IMG/VR virus record: IMGVR_UViG_2778261203_000001
Origin: a virus
Lineage: Duplodnaviria; Heunggongvirae; Uroviricota; Caudoviricetes
Reading direction: 5' to 3' (one strand)
Length of the DNA stretch: 9,694 bases
Shown: positions 420 to 7,411 of the stretch, piece after piece
How the letters are laid out: each line of letters starts with the position of its first letter
Position numbering within the stretch: the stretch's first letter is position 1
The notes under the pieces: model-generated
What the model was told of the DNA's origin: nothing
Seen by the model: only the letters and a program-made list of their open reading frames with translations
The model's database searches: none
Made by a program: the position numbers and the translations under genes

Positions 420-1004
420 TTACTCCGGATATTTAAAAATTACGTAGGTATGCGACGGGCAGAGTTTGTTAAGCACACACTCGACAACGGTGTCGCCCCA
501 GATACGCAGTGCGGAATCACAGGGATCGCCACATGTCATCCAGGTGGTGTTGGTGGCGGCTGGCATGTTGACCTGCCAGTAATACCGCCATTCCGGCGCA
601 TTCACCGCGTCAGTACAGGCCGATGAGCAGGTGAACGTGCTTTTGTCGTATCGCGTGATGGTGGCGTCTGGTCTGCCCAGGGCAGCAAGCTGTGCAAGGT
701 AAAAATCCTCATTGATGCCGCCCGCCAGGTTAACCTTCGCATCCAGTCGTTGCTGACGCTGGCGAAGGGTCTGTGTCCCTGCGGGAATACATTCATCCGG
801 CAGGCCGCACAGACGCTCCCAGCGATTTATCAGTTCGGTGGTGGTGCGCGGATCCAGCTCCCGCATCAGGGCATCCGCACGCTGATGAACGCGGGTTAAT
901 GACGGTGCCGCACCGGCAATCGCCGGATTGCTGGCTGACCACGCCGGACCGGGGGGCAACAGTGCCGACAACAGACGGATGTAATCATCGTTTGTCACGT
1001 CCAT
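420..1004 (-). CDS. Mu gp48 / P2 gpI-like tail-baseplate protein (YmfQ-like, DUF2313 family)
   Basis: 194-aa ORF with ATG at 1004, overlapping the stop of the upstream J-like gene by 10 nt. Sits between a J-like gene and the tail fibre gene as in Mu-type tails. Family assignment from recalled similarity to e14 YmfQ-type proteins. Confidence 0.65.
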
Positions 1005-2053
1005 GAAATCGTCCCCAGTACCGCCAGTTCATTTTTTGCAATGGAGATATTGTCTGCCGGTGCAAACAACTGATGGCTGTATTCCCCGTTCGCACCGGAA
1101 ATCGCCTCACTGATACGCGACACCTTCAGTTCTCCCTGCGGATAACCATCACGCAGCAGGAACGAACGCAACTCGGCGGTGATGGCAGCCCGTATTTCCG
1201 GTGTGTCCGGCGTCACGCGGATATGAAAATCCACTTTATGCGCCACCGGCCTGAAGACATACAAATCAGAGCCTGCCACCGGGGCCAGTGGCCCGATATG
1301 TTGTCTTGCCGCCGTTTCCGTTGATTCTTCCGGAATGGGATTAATCAGGTCACTGCCGGCAATCATCACACCGACAGTTCCCGTTCCCATCCAGTGACGG
1401 TATGTCCATGCGCGGGTAATGCCGGGCACTTCTTTAGCCCAGACGACATAGTCCCCGTCAGCCCCGCCCTGAGGCGTCCAGTAATACCGCTCAATGACGC
1501 GGGCGCGCCACGTTTCCAGATCTTCAGTATCGAATCCGCCAGTCAGGGTATCTGCAACACCGGAAGACGGCAGACGATTCACCGGCGTGACCAGGATTAA
1601 TGCCGTACCGTCGTCAGCGTTACCGACCGCGCCTGCACTTGAGCAAGTGATCGGCACGCGCAGGACACCACCGGAGCTGGTTGCATCAGCAGTTGCCGTG
1701 TATTGAACCAGGTCAGCGCGCTGAATAACACTCCCGGCGGTCACCTTCAGGCCATCGCTGACACCTTCCCAGCGCATATACCCGCTGGCAGCCGTGGCCC
1801 CCTTGCGCGGACACCGTTTCATCGCAGCATGTCGCGCCAGCCAGGACTCATCGCACAGGTCAGGCAGCATGTTCATTGCCAGATAATCGATGTAACCGTA
1901 AACCGTATGCAGAGCCGCCGCATACACCTTTGCCCGCACGTCTTCATCCATGCGCCGGAGCGTGTCGCTGACGTCCAGCCTGGCGAATAAATCGTTACGG
2001 AGCATACTGATATTTTCTGCCAGCGTCGGGCGCTGAAATTCACTGTCCGCCAT
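995..2053 (-). CDS. Baseplate J-like protein (Mu gp47 / P2 gpJ family)
   Basis: 352-aa ORF with ATG at 2053. Size and position (after the W-like gene, before the I-like gene) match baseplate wedge protein J. Start overlaps the upstream gene and stop overlaps the downstream gene, suggesting translational coupling. Confidence 0.75.
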
Positions 2054-2468
2054 GCGTTATCGCACTCCACAGATCATCAAAAGAAATCATTACCGGTCCG
2101 TCACGACGCCAGAGGGTGATACTGTTACCCAGCTCATTAATCCCGGTGCGGCGGATATCCAGATCAATACGGGACACCACGCCGTCATCAATCATCCATT
2201 GCAGGCATTCGCGGATATATCCCCTTACCGTCTGCACCAGTTGATTGGTCAGTTTGCTGCGCTGAAGCAGCCACAGTCGGGAGCCGTAACGGTCATTCTG
2301 TACCGCAGGCCAGGTATCCCCCCACCATCCCATCGGGACGTCGGCGTTGTCATCAGGCTCCGCCCGCCGCCAGGTAAACAGGGAAATCACCACGGCGCGG
2401 GTCAGCGGATCCAGCGGTGCGCTGGCGCAGGTGCGTTTACCGTTCACCGTCAGCCACAGTTCCATCAT
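2040..2468 (-). CDS. Mu gp46 / P2 gpW-like baseplate protein
   Basis: 142-aa ORF beginning ATGATG at 2468; start overlaps the stop of the V-like gene (ATGA). Size and synteny (V-W-J-I order) typical of Mu-like baseplate modules. Confidence 0.7.
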   Translation of the reverse strand: MMELWLTVNGKRTCASAPLDPLTRAVVISLFTWRRAEPDDNADVPMGWWGDTWPAVQNDRYGSRLWLLQRSKLTNQLVQTVRGYIRECLQWMIDDGVVSRIDLDIRRTGINELGNSITLWRRDGPVMISFDDLWSAITHGGQ

Positions 2469-3013
2469 GCCTCCATCGCTTTATCCGGTTTGTCGGTGTT
2501 ACTGCCCTGACCGTTCTCTCTGTGACGATGCCCGTTATAGGCAAGCCGCATCGCTGACATGGTGGTACCGCCGGAGTCGCACAGGTCTTTCACCTGTCCG
2601 GTCACTTCCAGGTCCATTTCAAAACGTGCTCTGGGCGCATTGCGAAACGTGATCGTTTTACCTGCACCGTCCACCACGATCCCCTCCCGGGTCAGCGTCA
2701 CAGACTGCCCCTGATCGTCATAGACAGCCACCTCACCCGTCTGCAGCCCTTTCAGGCGGTAGCGCCGGTCCGACACCGTAACAACCACCGCATGAGAACG
2801 GTCGCCATCCGGAAACAACACCACCGCTTCCGCACCGCTGTTTGCCCTTGCGGTAAAACCGTAGGGTTCAAGATGTTCAATCCCGGCTTTGGGTTCACCG
2901 GCAATCAGGGACACATCCACGGTCTGACATTTCGTGGCGGCACTGATGCTTTTCACCACTGCCCGCCCAATCAGGCCGAGAAGTTGTCGCTGCATGGCTT
3001 CAATCGTCCTCAT
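2465..3013 (-). CDS. Baseplate assembly protein V / central spike (Mu gp45-like)
   Basis: 182-aa ORF with ATG at 3013, overlapping the stop of the upstream chimeric ORF (TGATG). C-terminal segment ...DLCDSGGTTMSAMRLAYNGHRH... resembles the conserved C-terminus of gpV-type spikes (recalled). Confidence 0.7.
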   Translation of the reverse strand: MRTIEAMQRQLLGLIGRAVVKSISAATKCQTVDVSLIAGEPKAGIEHLEPYGFTARANSGAEAVVLFPDGDRSHAVVVTVSDRRYRLKGLQTGEVAVYDDQGQSVTLTREGIVVDGAGKTITFRNAPRARFEMDLEVTGQVKDLCDSGGTTMSAMRLAYNGHRHRENGQGSNTDKPDKAMEA

Positions 3014-3720
3014 CAGAACGGGTCCTCCTGTACTCTGGCTTTTTTCTTTTTCCGCGCGCCGGGGTCTTCGGGTTCAGGCAGATAAGCATCAGGCGGGCCG
3101 ACACGGATTTCCGTCAGGGTGCCGTTCTGGTCCTGAGTAAACGTGACTTCCGAAACAAGCAGTTCGGTATTGTCGAAACCACAGACCGGATCAAAGACAA
3201 TCACCCGCTGGTTGGGCTGCCACAGCGTACCGTTACCCTGTCGCCAGCCCTGCACCACATAGGTGGTTTCATCCGTCCGCGCCGCCCGTTGCCGGGCTTC
3301 AAAGTCAGCACGCGCAATACAGCCAGCCCCCGTGGCCTGCCCTGTCTGCCTGATATACATCGGACGGTAACGGGCAATAAATGCGTCCTCTGTGCGGGCC
3401 CGCAGCGCGGTGGTGGTGGCCTCACCGAAATCATCGTCGTTTCCGGCACGCTGCCCCGCCACCTGGTAAACTGAAAACCGCTCCCGGATACTCTTCTCCG
3501 TATCGCAGGAAAGGATGTTTTCCCCAAGTACCAGCGCGGTATGTGCCCGCGTTGAGCCAATAACATCCCACTTCGAACCATAACCGCGCTGATGACGGGA
3601 TTGTCCTGGCTTGTATTGCTTCCAGCCTTCGCTTTTGTGGCTTTCACAATAGCCTGACGGGTCTGTGGTGGTATGGCGGCAGCCACGAACACGGCAGGCT
3701 TTTGGGATTCGTGATGGCAT
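3013..3720 (-). CDS. Chimeric ORF: HNH endonuclease-like N-terminus fused to a tail/baseplate-hub-like C-terminus (probable deletion scar; may be a pseudogene)
   Basis: ATG at 3720 preceded by GGAG; the ORF track extends to a TTG at 3819. N-terminus MPSRIPKACRVRGCRHTTTDPSGYCESH...RGYGSKW matches the start of phage HNH endonucleases, but the second Cys pair and the His-Asn-His core expected after RGYGxxW are absent. The remaining ~180 aa is unrelated and is translationally coupled to the V-like gene, where a gp44/gpD-type hub gene would normally sit. Confidence 0.5.
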   Translation of the reverse strand: MPSRIPKACRVRGCRHTTTDPSGYCESHKSEGWKQYKPGQSRHQRGYGSKWDVIGSTRAHTALVLGENILSCDTEKSIRERFSVYQVAGQRAGNDDDFGEATTTALRARTEDAFIARYRPMYIRQTGQATGAGCIARADFEARQRAARTDETTYVVQGWRQGNGTLWQPNQRVIVFDPVCGFDNTELLVSEVTFTQDQNGTLTEIRVGPPDAYLPEPEDPGARKKKKARVQEDPF

Positions 3721-3817
3721 ATGTACTCCAATGAAGAAGCCACCGACATAGCCTCCTCCATTCATCGTGAAACTATTTTCATCTACCCAGTAATGAATTC
3801 TTTGTAGAGTTGTGATC

Positions 3818-3840
3818 AATACAACTCACTAATGGAGAGG
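3818..3840 (+). promoter_or_regulatory. T7-class single-subunit RNAP promoter-like motif
   Basis: AATACAACTCACTAATGGAGAGG against the T7 consensus TAATACGACTCACTATAGGGAGA: 13 of 14 positions match over -16 to -3 (the ACTCACTA core is identical), but the -2/-1 TA is AT and the initiating region diverges. Confidence 0.25.
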
Positions 3841-3862
3841 CTTGTCCAACACGTTGGACAAG
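3841..3862. repeat. Perfect 10-bp inverted repeat CTTGTCCAAC-AC-GTTGGACAAG (operator-like; as RNA a hairpin followed by a T-rich tract on the plus strand)
   Basis: Arms at 3841-3850 and 3853-3862 are exact reverse complements; followed on the plus strand by AGTTTCCTGTTTGATTT. Confidence 0.9.
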
Positions 3863-3873
3863 TTTCCTGTTTG

Positions 3874-3896
3874 ATTTACTGGACACTATAGAAGGA
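3874..3896 (+). promoter_or_regulatory. SP6-class single-subunit RNAP promoter-like motif
   Basis: ATTTACTGGACACTATAGAAGGA against the SP6 promoter ATTTAGGTGACACTATAGAAGAG: 18 of 23 match, including an identical 13-mer GACACTATAGAAG (-9 to +4) and the ATTTA at -17 to -13. The three upstream mismatches fall at -12 to -10. Confidence 0.35.
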
Positions 3897-3942
3897 CAGA
3901 ATGCCTTCATCACTCGAATAACATCAATTAAGGAGGTTCAAC

Positions 3943-4065
3943 ATGTTTCATTCCACAAATCATCAGGCTGTAATTATGGCTGCATCAGCTTGTGCCACAG
4001 ACCTTTTCCGCTTCACTTTGAGCCTGATTCATTTCTACCTGACCGGCTCGCCTCTATCTTTTTAA
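3943..4065 (+). CDS. Hypothetical small protein (40 aa)
   Basis: ATG at 3943 preceded by AAGGAGG with a 6-nt spacer; translation MFHSTNHQAVIMAASACATDLFRFTLSLIHFYLTGSPLSF, stop TAA at 4063-4065. Lies 52 nt downstream of the predicted +1 of the SP6-like motif. Too short for the ORF track; no homolog recognised. Confidence 0.3.
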   Translation: MFHSTNHQAVIMAASACATDLFRFTLSLIHFYLTGSPLSF

Positions 4066-4245
4066 TCCCCGCTTTATCCAAATTGCATTGCCAGAATGCC
4101 GACAACAGACTGACATTCAAATCCTGACTACCTCCAATAGTCTGACCGTACACCTATATAGTTTTAATTTTCATCAATCCATTTAACTATCGTTTAATTG
4201 TTGTCACATAGGATTCTGCCGTTTTTAACAATGCAGGATAATAAG

Positions 4246-4539
4246 ATGAAAAAAATGTTGTTTTCTGCCGCTCTGGCAATGCTTATTACAGGATGTGCTC
4301 AACAGACGTTTACTGTTGGAAACAAACCGACAGCAGTAACACCAAAGGAAACCATCACCCATCATTTCTTCGTTTCGGGAATTGGACAGGAGAAAACTGT
4401 TGATGCAGCCAAAATTTGTGGCGGCGCAGAAAATGTGGTTAAAACAGAAACCCAGCAAACATTCGTAAATGGATTGCTCGGTTTTATTACTTTAGGCATT
4501 TATACTCCGCTGGAAGCGCGGGTGTATTGCTCACAATAA
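4246..4539 (+). CDS. bor: Bor lipoprotein (lambda Bor / Iss family, serum-resistance-associated outer membrane lipoprotein)
   Basis: ATG at 4246 (MKKMLFSAALAMLITGC...) with AGGA upstream; 97 aa, lipobox LITGC. Near-identical by recollection to lambda Bor (...ETITHHFFVSGIGQ.KTVDAAKICGGAENVVKTETQQTFVNGLLGFITLGIYTPLEARVYCSQ). The track ORF from 4198 is an upstream extension. Confidence 0.9.
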   Translation: MKKMLFSAALAMLITGCAQQTFTVGNKPTAVTPKETITHHFFVSGIGQEKTVDAAKICGGAENVVKTETQQTFVNGLLGFITLGIYTPLEARVYCSQ

Positions 4540-4549
4540 TTGCATGAGT

Positions 4550-4567
4550 TGCCCATCGATATGGGCA
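4550..4567. other. Hairpin between convergent bor and Rz (TGCCCAT-CGAT-ATGGGCA)
   Basis: 7-bp perfect stem with 4-nt loop in the 31-bp gap between the bor stop (4537-4539) and the Rz stop (4571-4573). No U-tract on either side, so terminator function is uncertain. Confidence 0.3.
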
Positions 4568-4570
4568 GCG

Positions 4571-5032
4571 CTATCTGCACTGCTCATTAATATACTTCTG
4601 GGTTCCTTCCAGTTGTTTTTGCATCGTGATCAGCCTCTCTCTGAGGGTGAAATAATCCCGTTCAGCGGTGTCTGCCAGTCGGGGGGAGGCTGCATTATCC
4701 ACGCCGGAGGCGGTGGTGGCTTCACGCACTGACTGACAGACTGCTTTGATGTGCAACCGACGACGACCAGCGGCAACATCATCACGCAGAGCATCATTTT
4801 CAGCTTTCGCATCAGCTAACTCCTTCGTGTATTTTGCATCGAGCGCAGCAACATCACGCTGACGCATCTGCATGTCAGTAATTGCCGCGTTCGCTAGCTT
4901 CAGTTCTCTGGCATTTTTGTCGCGCTGGACTTTGTAGGCGATTGCGTTATCACGGTAATGATTGACCGCCCATGACAGGCTGACGATGATGCAGATAATC
5001 AGAGCGGATATAATCGCGGTTACTCTGCTCAC
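4571..5032 (-). CDS. Rz: Rz i-spanin (inner-membrane spanin subunit)
   Basis: Translation from ...[34 protein letters not shown]... to ...QKYINEQCR closely matches lambda Rz (recalled). Start placed at the GTG at 5032, which overlaps the endolysin stop (GTGA) and gives 153 aa; the track ORF starts at a further-upstream GTG at 5044. Confidence 0.85.
4630..4812 (-). CDS. Rz1: Rz1 o-spanin (outer-membrane lipoprotein spanin subunit), embedded in Rz in the +1 frame
   Basis: [60 protein letters not shown]; lipobox VVGC; proline-rich; AAGGAG RBS 7 nt upstream of the ATG at 4812. Near-identical to lambda Rz1 (recalled). Confidence 0.85.
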
Positions 5033-5526
5033 TGTTGCCCCCACAAACAGACTTCACGCTCAATCTCACGACGAGTCATCAGGCCTTTCCATTGCTTACC
5101 GCCAGCGTATGTCCAGCGACGCAGCTGATCACATGCGCCTTTGATATCGCCCTGGTTTATTTTGCGAAGAAGCGTCGATGTTCTAAAATTGCCAGCACCC
5201 ACGTTGTAAACGAATGAGTAAAGAGCGCCGCGCGTTGTTTCCGGTATATCGACTTTGATATACGGGTTAATTTGTCTGGCGACAGTGGCAAGGTCTTTAT
5301 TCAAGAGTGCTTTGCATTCTGCTTTGGTATACGTTTTACCGAGCATGATGTCTTTTCCGGTGTGTCCGTGACATACAGTCCATACACCAACAATATCTTT
5401 GTATGGTATGTAGCTGACACCTTCCAGACCATCGTTACCACTTGGGCCAGTGATTAACACTGATGCTATAGCAATTGCTCCGCCACCAATAGCAGCAGCA
5501 ACGGCTTTTCGTAATGATGGAGGCAT
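5029..5526 (-). CDS. R: SAR endolysin (phage-21 R21 / RrrD-type lysozyme with N-terminal signal-anchor-release domain)
   Basis: 165 aa. N-terminal Gly/Ala-rich weakly hydrophobic segment ([20 protein letters not shown]) followed by a lysozyme catalytic region (..[23 protein letters not shown]..). ATG overlaps the holin stop (TAATG). Confidence 0.9.
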
Positions 5527-5741
5527 TATTCACCTCTCGCAGCCTTGCGCTTATCTTCTTTAATCTTGAAATAAAGGTTTGTCAGGTACGTCAGCAGGCC
5601 AAATACCAGGCTACCCAGCACACCTATTGCTGCCCACTGTGAGGGAGTGACTTTATCTAGCAGCTGTAAAAACCAGTACCCGGCACTACCTGCTGAGGTG
5701 CCATAGGCGACACCCGTTGTTAACTTATCCATGGATTTCAT
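5526..5741 (-). CDS. S: Class II holin / pinholin (phage-21 S21 / EssD-type) with dual-start motif
   Basis: 71 aa, [28 protein letters not shown]...[35 protein letters not shown]; two predicted TMDs. Met1 (5741) and Met4 (5732) give the classic antiholin/holin dual start; GAGGTGG upstream. Confidence 0.9.
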
Positions 5742-5886: not shown

Positions 5887-6313
5887 AAGCTGTGTGACGA
5901 AGTAACCACTCTTAACAGCATAACCAATTTTTTACGTACGTAAACCACTAAATGATATTTGAGAGAATGCTACCGAGTATTGAAAACACCACTACAAATA
6001 CATAAGCAAATCTCAACAAATAACCAAAAAATAATTTCCAGTGTTATTTTTAGCCGGTTTAAATTGAACCTTCAAATTATAGAGCACTTATAAATAACAG
6101 CCGTTAATATAAATTGGCTAATAGATTTATTTTTATTCAGCCAAGAGCCATGAATAGGATTCGATAGAAAAAAGTTCAGATAAAAATAGAGATCTACTTC
6201 ACAAATCAAACGAGAAACCAAAACTTACATCTTGAAATAATCACATTGATTAGATGAATATTTATCGCGCAGTGACATCATTTTTTAATAATAGTTCAAA
6301 AAAAGGGCTCACG

Positions 6314-7411
6314 ATGAAAAAATTAACAGTGGCAATTTCTGCTGTAGCTGCATCAGTACTGATGGCGATGTCTGCTCAGGCAGCTGAAATTTATAATAAA
6401 GACAGTAACAAGCTGGATCTGTACGGGAAAGTTAATGCTAAGCACTACTTCTCCTCTAATGATGCAGATGATGGTGATACTACTTATGCCCGTCTTGGCT
6501 TCAAAGGTGAAACCCAAATCAACGATCAACTGACTGGTTTCGGTCAGTGGGAATATGAATTCAAAGGCAACCGCGCTGAATCTCAAGGTTCCTCCAAAGA
6601 TAAAACCCGTCTTGCCTTCGCTGGCCTGAAATTCGGTGACTACGGCTCCATCGATTACGGCCGTAACTACGGTGTAGCATACGACATCGGTGCGTGGACT
6701 GACGTCCTGCCAGAATTCGGTGGTGACACTTGGACTCAAACCGACGTGTTCATGACTCAACGTGCAACTGGTGTTGCAACCTATCGTAACAACGACTTCT
6801 TTGGTCTGGTTGATGGTCTGAACTTTGCTGCTCAGTACCAAGGCAAAAACGATCGTAGCGATTTCGATAACTACACTGAAGGTAACGGTGATGGCTTCGG
6901 TTTCTCTGCTACCTATGAATACGAAGGATTCGGTATCGGTGCAACTTATGCGAAATCTGATCGTACCGACACTCAAGTTAATGCAGGGAAAGTTCTTCCT
7001 GAAGTATTTGCTTCCGGTAAAAATGCAGAAGTTTGGGCCGCAGGTCTGAAATATGACGCTAACAACATTTACCTGGCCACTACCTATTCTGAAACCCAGA
7101 ATATGACTGTATTTGCTGATCACTTCGTTGCTAATAAAGCCCAAAACTTCGAAGCTGTTGCACAATATCAGTTCGATTTCGGTCTGCGTCCGTCCGTTGC
7201 TTACCTGCAATCTAAAGGTAAGGATCTTGGAGTATGGGGCGATCAGGACTTAGTCAAATATGTTGATGTAGGTGCAACCTATTACTTCAACAAAAATATG
7301 TCTACTTTCGTTGATTACAAAATCAACCTGCTTGACAAAAATGACTTCACTAAAGCACTCGGTGTAAGCACTGATGACATCGTTGCTGTAGGTCTGGTTT
7401 ACCAGTTCTAA
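6314..7411 (+). CDS. nmpC: General porin of the OmpC/OmpF/PhoE family, phage-borne (NmpC / Lc type)
   Basis: 365 aa starting [23 protein letters not shown]|AEIYNKD (signal peptide), C-terminus ...VAVGLVYQF with terminal Phe typical of outer-membrane beta-barrels. Matches NmpC of DLP12 by recollection. Start at 6314 preferred over the track's upstream ATG at 6254. Confidence 0.9.

Follow-up and report, generated by a model that had tools for sequence, protein, structure and literature searches.

Tandem promoters of T7-group and SP6-group type ahead of a 40-codon gene in lambdoid prophages: a putative cassette for transcription by invading phages

The 9,694-nt viral record IMGVR_UViG_2778261203_000001 (the window, i.e. 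the whole stretch analysed) represents a lambdoid prophage in reverse lambda orientation, and at 3817-4065 on its + strand carries two promoters in tandem, one of T7-group and one of SP6-group type, ahead of a conserved 40-codon open reading frame (ORF) with a strong ribosome-binding site. Judged by sequence, both sites are promoters, yet orphan ones, with no cognate polymerase in the same genome. The segment would constitute a self-contained expression cassette wired to foreign polymerases, and we favour, with moderate confidence, a reading in which it lies silent in the prophage until transcribed by the polymerase of an invading T7-like or SP6-like phage, yielding an anti-phage product. The parts of the cassette are as follows.

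3817..3840, + strand: T7-group promoter of the Berlinvirus type, spanning -17 to +7, predicted start G 3834
3831..3871, + strand: RNA stem-loop, beginning at the T7-type +1, its apical part being the palindrome 3841-3862
3874..3896, + strand: SP6-group promoter of the K1E (Vectrevirus) type, predicted start G 3891
3891..3908, + strand: second 5′-terminal hairpin, GAAGG...CCUUC, starting at the K1E-type +1, as read from the sequence
3930..3936, + strand: Shine-Dalgarno sequence AAGGAGG (consensus), 6 nt before the ATG
3943..4065, + strand: gene for a 40-aa protein, MFHSTNHQAVIMAASACATDLFRFTLSLIHFYLTGSPLSF (40-codon ORF)

Two promoters of virulent-phage type

The SP6-like site, ATTTACTGGACACTATAGAAGGA at 3874-3896 (+), agrees with the SP6 consensus at 18/21 positions, counted against the perfect SP6 phage copy at 22413, and contains the 13-mer GACACTATAGAAG. 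Its agreement with the K1E consensus is complete (21/21): coliphage K1E holds four perfect copies of ATTTACTGGACACTATAGAAG, at 13925, 15932, 24431 and 41717, and window positions 3873-3894 are identical to K1E 41716-41737 over 22/22 nt. Position weight matrices were made for this analysis from K1E, PZJ0206, T7 (17 annotated promoters) and K11 (13 annotated promoters of Klebsiella phage K11). On the K1E matrix the site scores 36.7 bits, within the 20.6-37.0 bits of genuine K1E promoters in leave-one-out scoring. An earlier note, made from the sequence of this DNA alone, had pointed to bases -12 to -10 as departing from SP6; they do differ from SP6 but do not lie outside the family, as CTG is the K1E consensus in all four perfect 21-mers. 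Viral contigs scanned for the version with CTG at -12 to -10 include contigs of ~44 kb with several copies each. The sequence conforms to the Molineuxvirinae promoter consensus of ~21-23 bp (-17 to +4/+6), whereas its context does not: the surrounding genome is that of a lambdoid prophage, the late operon runs antisense to the site, and no polymerase gene was found.

The T7-like site, AATACAACTCACTAATGGAGAGG at 3818-3840 (+), agrees with the T7 promoter at 13/14 positions over -16 to -3, and window positions 3815-3835 are identical (21/21) to a promoter of Enterobacter phage PZJ0206 (Berlinvirus) at 27463-27443. The PZJ0206 matrix gives the site 28-29 bits (genuine promoters 19.1-38.5); its 22.4 bits on the T7 matrix are close to the bottom of the genuine range, 22.0-38.7. 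The PZJ0206 promoter consensus, AATACGACTCACTA[A/T]TGGGAGA, accounts for the AT found at -2/-1 of the window site, and the A at -11 is also present in T7 phiOL. The window copy begins GGA rather than GGG; the variant at locus L023 has GGGAGAG and scores 36.9 bits. Over its length the site shows the features of a Studiervirinae polymerase promoter (23-bp consensus, CTCACTA core, GGGAGA start region).

Elsewhere in the window the next-best matrix score is below 7 bits. In 596 Gb of bacterial genomes the pattern ATTTANNNGACACTATAGAAG has 21 matches, where simple arithmetic predicts ~17; all 21 fall in unrelated taxa and none is enterobacterial, and the expectation is roughly 3e-7 per window of such size. 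The window motifs thus lie far beyond chance, as the earlier note had argued from the 13-mer, and its view of them as promoters of the T7-group type is borne out by the matrix scoring it had proposed, both sites scoring within the genuine ranges of the K1E, PZJ0206 and T7 matrices. Its coordinates, the 13/14 T7 match, the 13-mer, the 10-bp repeat, AAGGAGG and the 40-codon ORF all hold on the sequence, and the promoters do face the small ORF with its strong ribosome-binding site. A crude, simple scan of 3500-4600 revealed no sigma-70-like promoter, which is weak evidence.

No gene for a single-subunit RNA polymerase was found in the window, in related loci or, as far as the available passages on it go, in Shigella phage SfIV. 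The earlier suggestion of an uncharacterised polymerase encoded elsewhere is therefore retained as to 'elsewhere', whereas the sites match known groups (K1E/Vectrevirus and Berlinvirus/T7); most likely it is a superinfecting phage, not the host genome, that would supply the polymerase. A T7-group polymerase would then start at 3834 and an SP6-group polymerase at 3891.

Transcript structures and the 40-codon gene

Between the promoters lies a perfect 10-bp inverted repeat (arms 3841-3850 and 3853-3862), for which a protein-binding role had been considered in the earlier note. It is not primarily such a module; it belongs to a + strand RNA stem-loop common to SP6-like phages. The stem-loop folds with -20.1 kcal/mol on the + strand versus -13.8 on the - strand, and in 11/12 variants it is the + strand that folds more stably. 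An 18-pair hairpin model is paired in 94.9% of cells across variants, compared with 33-51% in controls with slid partners. Three pairs are changed on both sides, and many of the changes convert G.U to G.C. The compensatory series runs from GTCCAAC/GTTGGAC through GTCTCAC/GTGAGAC to GCCTCAC/GTGAGGC, and its first two forms (GTCCAAC, GTCTCAC) mirror the two phage-group variants. The start of the extended stem coincides exactly with the predicted T7-type +1, and its G.U pairs exist on the + strand only. A pattern scan flags a terminator-like element at 3837-3866 (+), yet no + strand gene lies upstream; as the stem moreover starts at the T7-type +1, a 5′ leader stem-loop fits this element better than a terminator. 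Searches of Rfam at permissive thresholds over 3400-4600 returned only chance-level eukaryotic matches. A cos or pac site was also considered for the palindrome and dropped, because the genome ends of SfIV and HK97-type phages lie beyond the HNH gene, outside the block.

The second hairpin opens the transcript from the K1E-type start. Loci L014, L016 and L011 carry A-to-G changes at +2/+3 that would keep its pairing as G.U, on the + strand only, and the capsid-gene promoters of K1E and SP6 have comparable 5′ hairpins. A conserved 52-nt leader follows the K1E-type start, and every homologue retains a strong Shine-Dalgarno sequence, those of Klebsiella and the more distant ones included. The order of promoter, 5′ stem-loop, A/U-rich leader and strong ribosome-binding site is the late-mRNA layout of K1E, SP6 and PZJ0206; the T7 phi10 leader has a comparable 5′ stem-loop layout.

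In a sensitive BLAST search, window positions 3844-3894 match an intergenic region of Klebsiella SP6-like phages, and the hairpin-plus-promoter layout is homologous to Kp702 14418-14477. The module of hairpin, spacer and promoter matches the intergenic regions gp19/20 of SP6, gp17/18 of K1E and gp20/21 of Kp702, the homology to virulent phages being confined to pieces of ~20-60 nt. Across the whole genome of KpnP_VR702 the promoter 21-mer occurs about a dozen times, on the coding strand, and GTCCAAC-NN-GTTGGAC occurs 8 times, mostly right after stop codons and in 3 cases directly before a promoter; K1E has eight copies of the variant GTCTCAC-NN-GTGAGAC. As a side observation, the 7-2-7 palindrome is repeated in SP6-like phages, mostly after stop codons and often before a promoter, with lower-stem G.U pairs on the coding strand (K1E, L152: 632, 6805, 6987, 8005, 9573, 10750, 15901, 32586; Kp702, L006: 6270, 6433, 7231, 8638, 9578, 14418, 19578, 31781; SP6, L174: 6093, 17752, 14258). 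Its role, be it RNA stability, processing or polymerase pausing, appears undescribed, the exact strings having been sought in the literature and not found.

The 40-codon ORF is intact in all 40 variants. Its product combines a hypervariable N-terminal half with 15 invariant residues at the C-terminus. Over the whole ORF the variable columns are distributed 11/10/12 by codon position, which first suggested a non-coding sequence; this reading was overturned by separate analysis of the two halves and by the Klebsiella homologues. The last 15 codons and the stop hold 11 variable columns, all synonymous in the + frame, among 105 copies from E. coli, Shigella and Klebsiella, and only one non-synonymous variant occurs there (11/12 substitutions synonymous). 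Nine of these columns are second codon positions of the antisense o-spanin (Rz1) frame and alter its product. Such a pattern points to a real gene whose C-terminal part is under purifying selection.

Homologues are 37-40 aa only and share F-x-LS-[LV]-x-H-[FY]-[FY]-LTG-x-PL-x-F. A profile search of 1.84 billion proteins likewise returned relatives of 37-40 aa only; every one whose context was checked lies in a prophage, be it of Klebsiella or of other enterobacteria, and always on the opposite strand at the lysis/packaging boundary. The 40-aa protein is predicted to form a single helix over residues 2-34 (predicted local distance difference test, pLDDT, 81). It is hydrophobic, with a transmembrane-like score that is clear only in the Klebsiella variant (Kyte-Doolittle hydropathy 1.83 in a 19-aa window).

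Distribution, variation and Klebsiella counterparts

The block 3762-4012 is present in 632/5426 complete E. coli genomes (~12%), and in the records listed no annotated feature underlies the match. Several E. coli phage records contain it as well, as does, at ~85% identity, SfIV, where the SP6-type motif ATTTAGGTGACACTtTAGAAGG agrees with SP6 at 20/21 positions and the T7-type motif AATACGACTCACTA with T7 at 14/14. The passages available from the SfIV genome paper describe a genome of 39.8 kb with 54 ORFs and lambdoid regulation with a Q antiterminator, and make no mention of the motifs (PMC3851460). A leader 21-mer gave no match in species-representative genomes, and there the SP6-type pattern is found at chance level only, so that the block is absent from the reference genome of any species. 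The earlier note had named a common conserved lambdoid block with a known function as the outcome that would count against its finding: the block is indeed common and conserved, but it has no known function, and the finding stands. Literature searches, including searches with the exact palindrome strings, found no description of a role, in line with that note.

Fetching loci by the leader 21-mer, and not by the promoters, gave 90 viral and prophage loci in 39 distinct versions. All 40 variants keep both promoters in the genuine range (23.4-35.7 and 26.5-36.7 bits). The SP6-type site varies mainly at -12 to -10, where CTG, CTT, GGT and AAT occur; natural specificity types are among them, namely K1E-type CTG and SP6-type GGT. 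Some variants have a C-to-G form at -5, a form that K1E itself has at 7008. Three loci carry insertions: in L100 the end of an IS629-like element lies exactly at the hairpin centre (reverse complement, about 1-125), in L073 an IS2 element separates the small ORF from bor, and in L131 the K1E-type promoter gives way, immediately after +4, to an unidentified sequence. These were considered as alternative junctions and rejected, being insertions of which none brings a new payload. A larger + strand payload was also sought, with only bor (E. coli) or, in some Klebsiella, a 125-aa ORF without family matches as candidates, neither of them constant.

The neighbouring genes of the window are as follows.

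3560..3722, - strand: 5′ part of an HNH endonuclease gene, left neighbour, truncated; homology to relatives ends near 3560
4013..4153, - strand: 3′ remnant of an SfIV-type o-spanin gene (Rz1), from tblastn with SfIV Rz1 and the SfIV annotation
4246..4539, + strand: bor/iss lipoprotein gene (Pfam Lambda_Bor, E = 6.4e-31; RefSeq 'iss')
4571-5044, - strand: Rz
5029-5526, - strand: endolysin
5526-5741, - strand: holin

Relatives that are intact have the order holin - endolysin - Rz/Rz1 - [bor] - block - HNH - terS - terL - portal; the phage genes are all on the other strand from the motifs, and the block separates the lysis genes from the packaging genes. The gene bor lies downstream in the same orientation as the cassette and so would be co-transcribed by a phage polymerase reading through, but it has no counterpart in SfIV-type relatives and is thus not a constant part of the cassette. 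The Rz1 remnant overlaps the last 17 codons of the 40-codon ORF in antisense. It is what remained after the original lysis genes had been exchanged for a lambda/21-type Rz-bor segment; ON470607 labels this stretch 'DUF4347 fragment', and the same boundary recurs in independent Klebsiella recombinants. At 420-3761 (-) the HNH gene keeps approximately its first 54 codons, fused to Mu-like baseplate genes gp45/46/47(J)/48, and terminase, portal, head and most tail genes, present in intact relatives, have been lost. Between the lysis genes and the Q region, at 6254-7411 (+), the prophage contains a porin gene (Pfam Porin_1, E = 5.6e-157). An ORF at 3779-3913 on the - strand was rejected, as a 1-nt indel in several variants breaks its frame.

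Klebsiella prophages have counterparts of the cassette. The 38-aa Klebsiella homologue, like three further relatives at greater distance, is found between the lysis cassette and the packaging genes, on the opposite strand and with different neighbours. The cassette thus behaves as an autonomous unit independent of what surrounds it, as a moron does, adjoining HNH/P27-terS in E. coli versus PhageMetallopep/DUF2280-terS or others in Klebsiella; its right-hand flanks also vary. The Klebsiella T7-group promoter differs by lineage (AATTAGGGCCCACTATAGAGACC, AATTAGGTAGCACTATAGGGAGG, ATTAAGACTCACTATTGGGAAGG), with AATTAGGGCCCACTATAGAGACC scoring 28.8 bits on the K11 matrix (genuine promoters 25.5-38.7). 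It is followed by a GTCCAAC hairpin and then by AATAGTGGCGAGTATAGAAC, a promoter of a third SP6-like class, TAATAGTGGCGAGTATAGAA, that is found in 5-9 or more copies in viral contigs of ~45 kb; these contigs also carry gggcttGTCCAACgcGTTAGACaa directly before a promoter. The third-class copies in Klebsiella prophages score 28.7-29.5 bits. In this class, TAATAGTGGCGAGTATAGAA[G/C], the core GGCGAGTATAG replaces GACACTATAG; its loci are L182, L273, L276 and L289 (IMGVR_UViG_3300029472_000005) and L189, L285, L315 and L327 (IMGVR_UViG_3300045988_045697). Viral contigs scanned for the Klebsiella motifs TTACACGAGTAGGAAC and ATTAAGACTCACTAT gave no multi-copy virulent contigs to which these could be assigned. 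The promoter types therefore appear matched to the host, the E. coli and Shigella cassettes having coliphage or Salmonella-phage types and the Klebsiella cassettes the K11 type, K11 being a Klebsiella phage.

Further conserved elements were observed in the Klebsiella loci (L175-L180, about 2780-3000; L269-L272, about 2290-2500): a palindrome, TTGTCTCTTATAAGAGACAA, upstream of the T7-group promoter, and TTTAATGTTACACGAGTAGGAACAG and AATTAAGTTACACAATAGAAATC between the SP6-group promoter and the ribosome-binding site. These may be promoters of further phage groups. In L175 and L177 the 125-aa ORF (3510-3887, +) lies downstream of the small ORF, in the position of bor in E. coli, and is a possible second payload of read-through transcription.

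Proposed function and alternatives

Known systems offer partial parallels. The SP6 group (Molineuxvirinae: K1E/K1-5, SP6, KpnP_VR702) has the identical K1E-type promoter of 21-23 bp, the 7-2-7 palindrome 14-16 nt upstream, and a transcript that starts GAAG and opens with a 5′ hairpin; here, in contrast, these features are orphans in a lambdoid prophage, on the strand opposite to the neighbours and paired with the promoter of another subfamily. T7 class III and Berlinvirus promoters share the -17 to +6 consensus, a GG(G)AGA start that forms the base of a stem-loop, an A/U-rich leader and a strong Shine-Dalgarno sequence, whereas the window site differs from T7 class III in having AT rather than TA at -2/-1, A at -11 and GGA at +1 to +3, and lies outside T7-like genomes. 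Lambdoid morons (bor and lom, for instance) are likewise small autonomous units on the opposite strand at the lysis/packaging boundary, bor being directly downstream here. Known morons have host sigma-70 promoters and are expressed in the lysogen, whereas the promoters of the cassette are predicted to be readable only by a foreign phage polymerase. Satellites are switched on by helper phages (P4 by P2 Ogr; derepression of phage-inducible chromosomal islands, PICI, and of the SaPI elements), and phage-triggered suicide cassettes have been engineered; in both, as proposed here, a resident element is silent until a factor of the incoming phage activates its genes. Unlike in helper-activated satellites, the trigger here would be the polymerase of the invader acting on copies of its own promoters, and the resident is not a satellite of that phage. 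No natural precedent for a polymerase-triggered cassette was found in the literature. Type I toxins (Hok, TisB, Ldr) resemble the product in being mostly helical, hydrophobic peptides, here of 37-40 aa, but there is no sequence similarity, no antisense RNA antitoxin was identified, no Rfam match was obtained, and control would be exerted through promoter specificity.

The sequences establish the type and conservation of both promoters, the RNA structures on the + strand, purifying selection on the protein and the host-matched versions of Klebsiella. The cassette should be silent both in the lysogen and during lytic growth of the prophage, because neither prophage nor host contains such a polymerase and because it is antisense to the late operon. 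The promoters would be expected to fire in vivo, with strong transcription, only after infection by a virulent T7-like or SP6-like phage that has made its polymerase, and the 40-codon gene is probably switched on only during attack by such a phage. Its small, helical, hydrophobic product would then act in abortive infection or exclusion, harming the invader, and the cassette is probably defensive. More speculatively, the product might damage or depolarise the membrane and cause premature lysis, or block polymerase-driven genome entry.

A further step, which we regard as possible rather than probable, is that this represents a new principle of immunity, in which prophages of E. coli, Shigella and Klebsiella keep a micro-gene behind copied Autographiviridae promoters so that the invader's polymerase is the trigger. 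Under this principle the array would evolve by specificity swaps (K1E, SP6, Berlinvirus/T7, K11 and the third SP6-like class), and promoter swapping would reflect an arms race over promoter recognition.

Several points weigh against a phage-triggered defensive cassette. The functional account as a whole is drawn from sequence. Promoter positions vary between lineages at about the background rate, and copies depart from consensus (T at -3 in SfIV; A at -11 and one G fewer at +1 to +3 in the window), so that some may be weak; the Klebsiella third-class copies likewise fall slightly below that class's genuine range of 31.6-34.1 bits. The N-terminal 20 codons show no purifying selection (variable columns 10/10/5 by codon position), and the product belongs to no recognisable family, with no Pfam, PHROG or PADLOC match for the 40-aa or the 38-aa protein (Pfam assignments, precomputed for all homologues, read '-'). 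T7-like phages degrade host DNA, and the time for expression would therefore be short. The prophage in this window is defective. Finally, repeated recombination with infecting phages could yield switching of promoter types without selection for sensing.

Among the alternatives, we regard as unlikely that the block is a neutral relic, pieces of T7-like and SP6-like DNA captured by an ancestral temperate phage that now drift without function. The short extent of the virulent-phage homology, the similar divergence of promoter bases and flanks between lineages and the off-consensus copies (T at -3 in SfIV, A at -11 in the window) would all be expected of such a relic. Drift does not, however, readily account for promoters of two subfamilies that adjoin, co-oriented, ahead of a ribosome-binding site and ORF, nor for the retention of both sites within the genuine range in all variants, the compensatory hairpin changes with G.U pairs on the + strand only, purifying selection on the ORF, and the same architecture with host-appropriate promoter types in Klebsiella prophages with other neighbours. 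The relic of a T7-group phage put forward in the earlier note may thus be kept in part, as an origin, whereas the conservation of the promoters, hairpin and ORF and the Klebsiella counterparts speak against it as the present state.

An improbable alternative is that promoter and hairpin serve as patches of homology for cassette exchange between Autographiviridae and prophages, in which case the switching of types would be gene conversion and there would be no sensor. Promoter-flanked cassettes are exchanged among SP6-like phages (SP6/K1-5). In agreement with exchange, prophage copies combining GTCTCAC/GTGAGAC with CTG match K1E and those combining GTCCAAC/GTTGGAC with GGT match SP6/Kp702, and the left arm GGCTTGTCTCAC is identical to K1E copies. 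Yet the profile search of 1.84 billion proteins revealed no virulent-phage homologue of the payload gene, all relatives checked for context lying in prophages; conversion in a lysogen can be passed on only where cell or prophage outlives the infection; and the conserved leader, ribosome-binding site and selection on the ORF are left unexplained.

The remaining explanations are effectively excluded. It is very improbable that the block is a cis element of the - strand late transcript of the prophage, such as a processing or stabilising hairpin upstream of HNH and terminase, with an incidental likeness to promoters: although every relative has the block within the late operon, flanked by Rz1 and HNH, and the palindrome folds on the - strand too, exact identities of 21-22 nt to promoters of two phage groups are expected ~1e-7 per window, the G.U pairs of the extended stem become A.C mismatches on the - strand, where the fold is weaker in 11/12 variants, the 1-nt indel disrupts the ORF at 3779-3913, and Rfam yields no matching family. 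Use of the promoters by a phage-type polymerase encoded in the prophage or host is formally possible in individual strains but scarcely credible, since the window and related loci show holin, endolysin, Rz, HNH and terminase under Q control, two promoters would require two polymerases, and the available passages of the SfIV paper report no polymerase gene (PMC3851460). Contamination by a cloning vector has negligible probability: adjacent T7-type and SP6-type promoters are typical of the polylinkers of in vitro transcription vectors, but these are in tandem rather than convergent, neither equals the vector sequence, and the presence of the block in 632 complete E. coli genomes, its ~85% identity in SfIV and the diverged Klebsiella form refute it by distribution and by divergence of up to 15%, as the earlier note had held on the basis of the promoter sequence.

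If the proposed phage-triggered cassette is borne out, the signal of infection would be the invader's private polymerase acting on its private promoter, which could not fire by accident, and escape would require a phage to change the specificity of its polymerase together with all of its own promoters. This would constitute a new mode of sensing in bacterial immunity and give a function to an unannotated block in ~12% of complete E. coli genomes. K1E/K1-5-, SP6-, T7- and K11-like phages are common in E. coli and Klebsiella phage therapy, and the cassette may help to explain strain-level barriers to their host range; likewise, T7-family expression systems regarded as 'orthogonal' may lack that property in natural strains. 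The analysis also draws attention to the repeated RNA hairpin of SP6-like phages, of which no description was found in the literature. Even as a neutral relic, the block is a record of virulent Autographiviridae and temperate prophages having repeatedly exchanged sequence.

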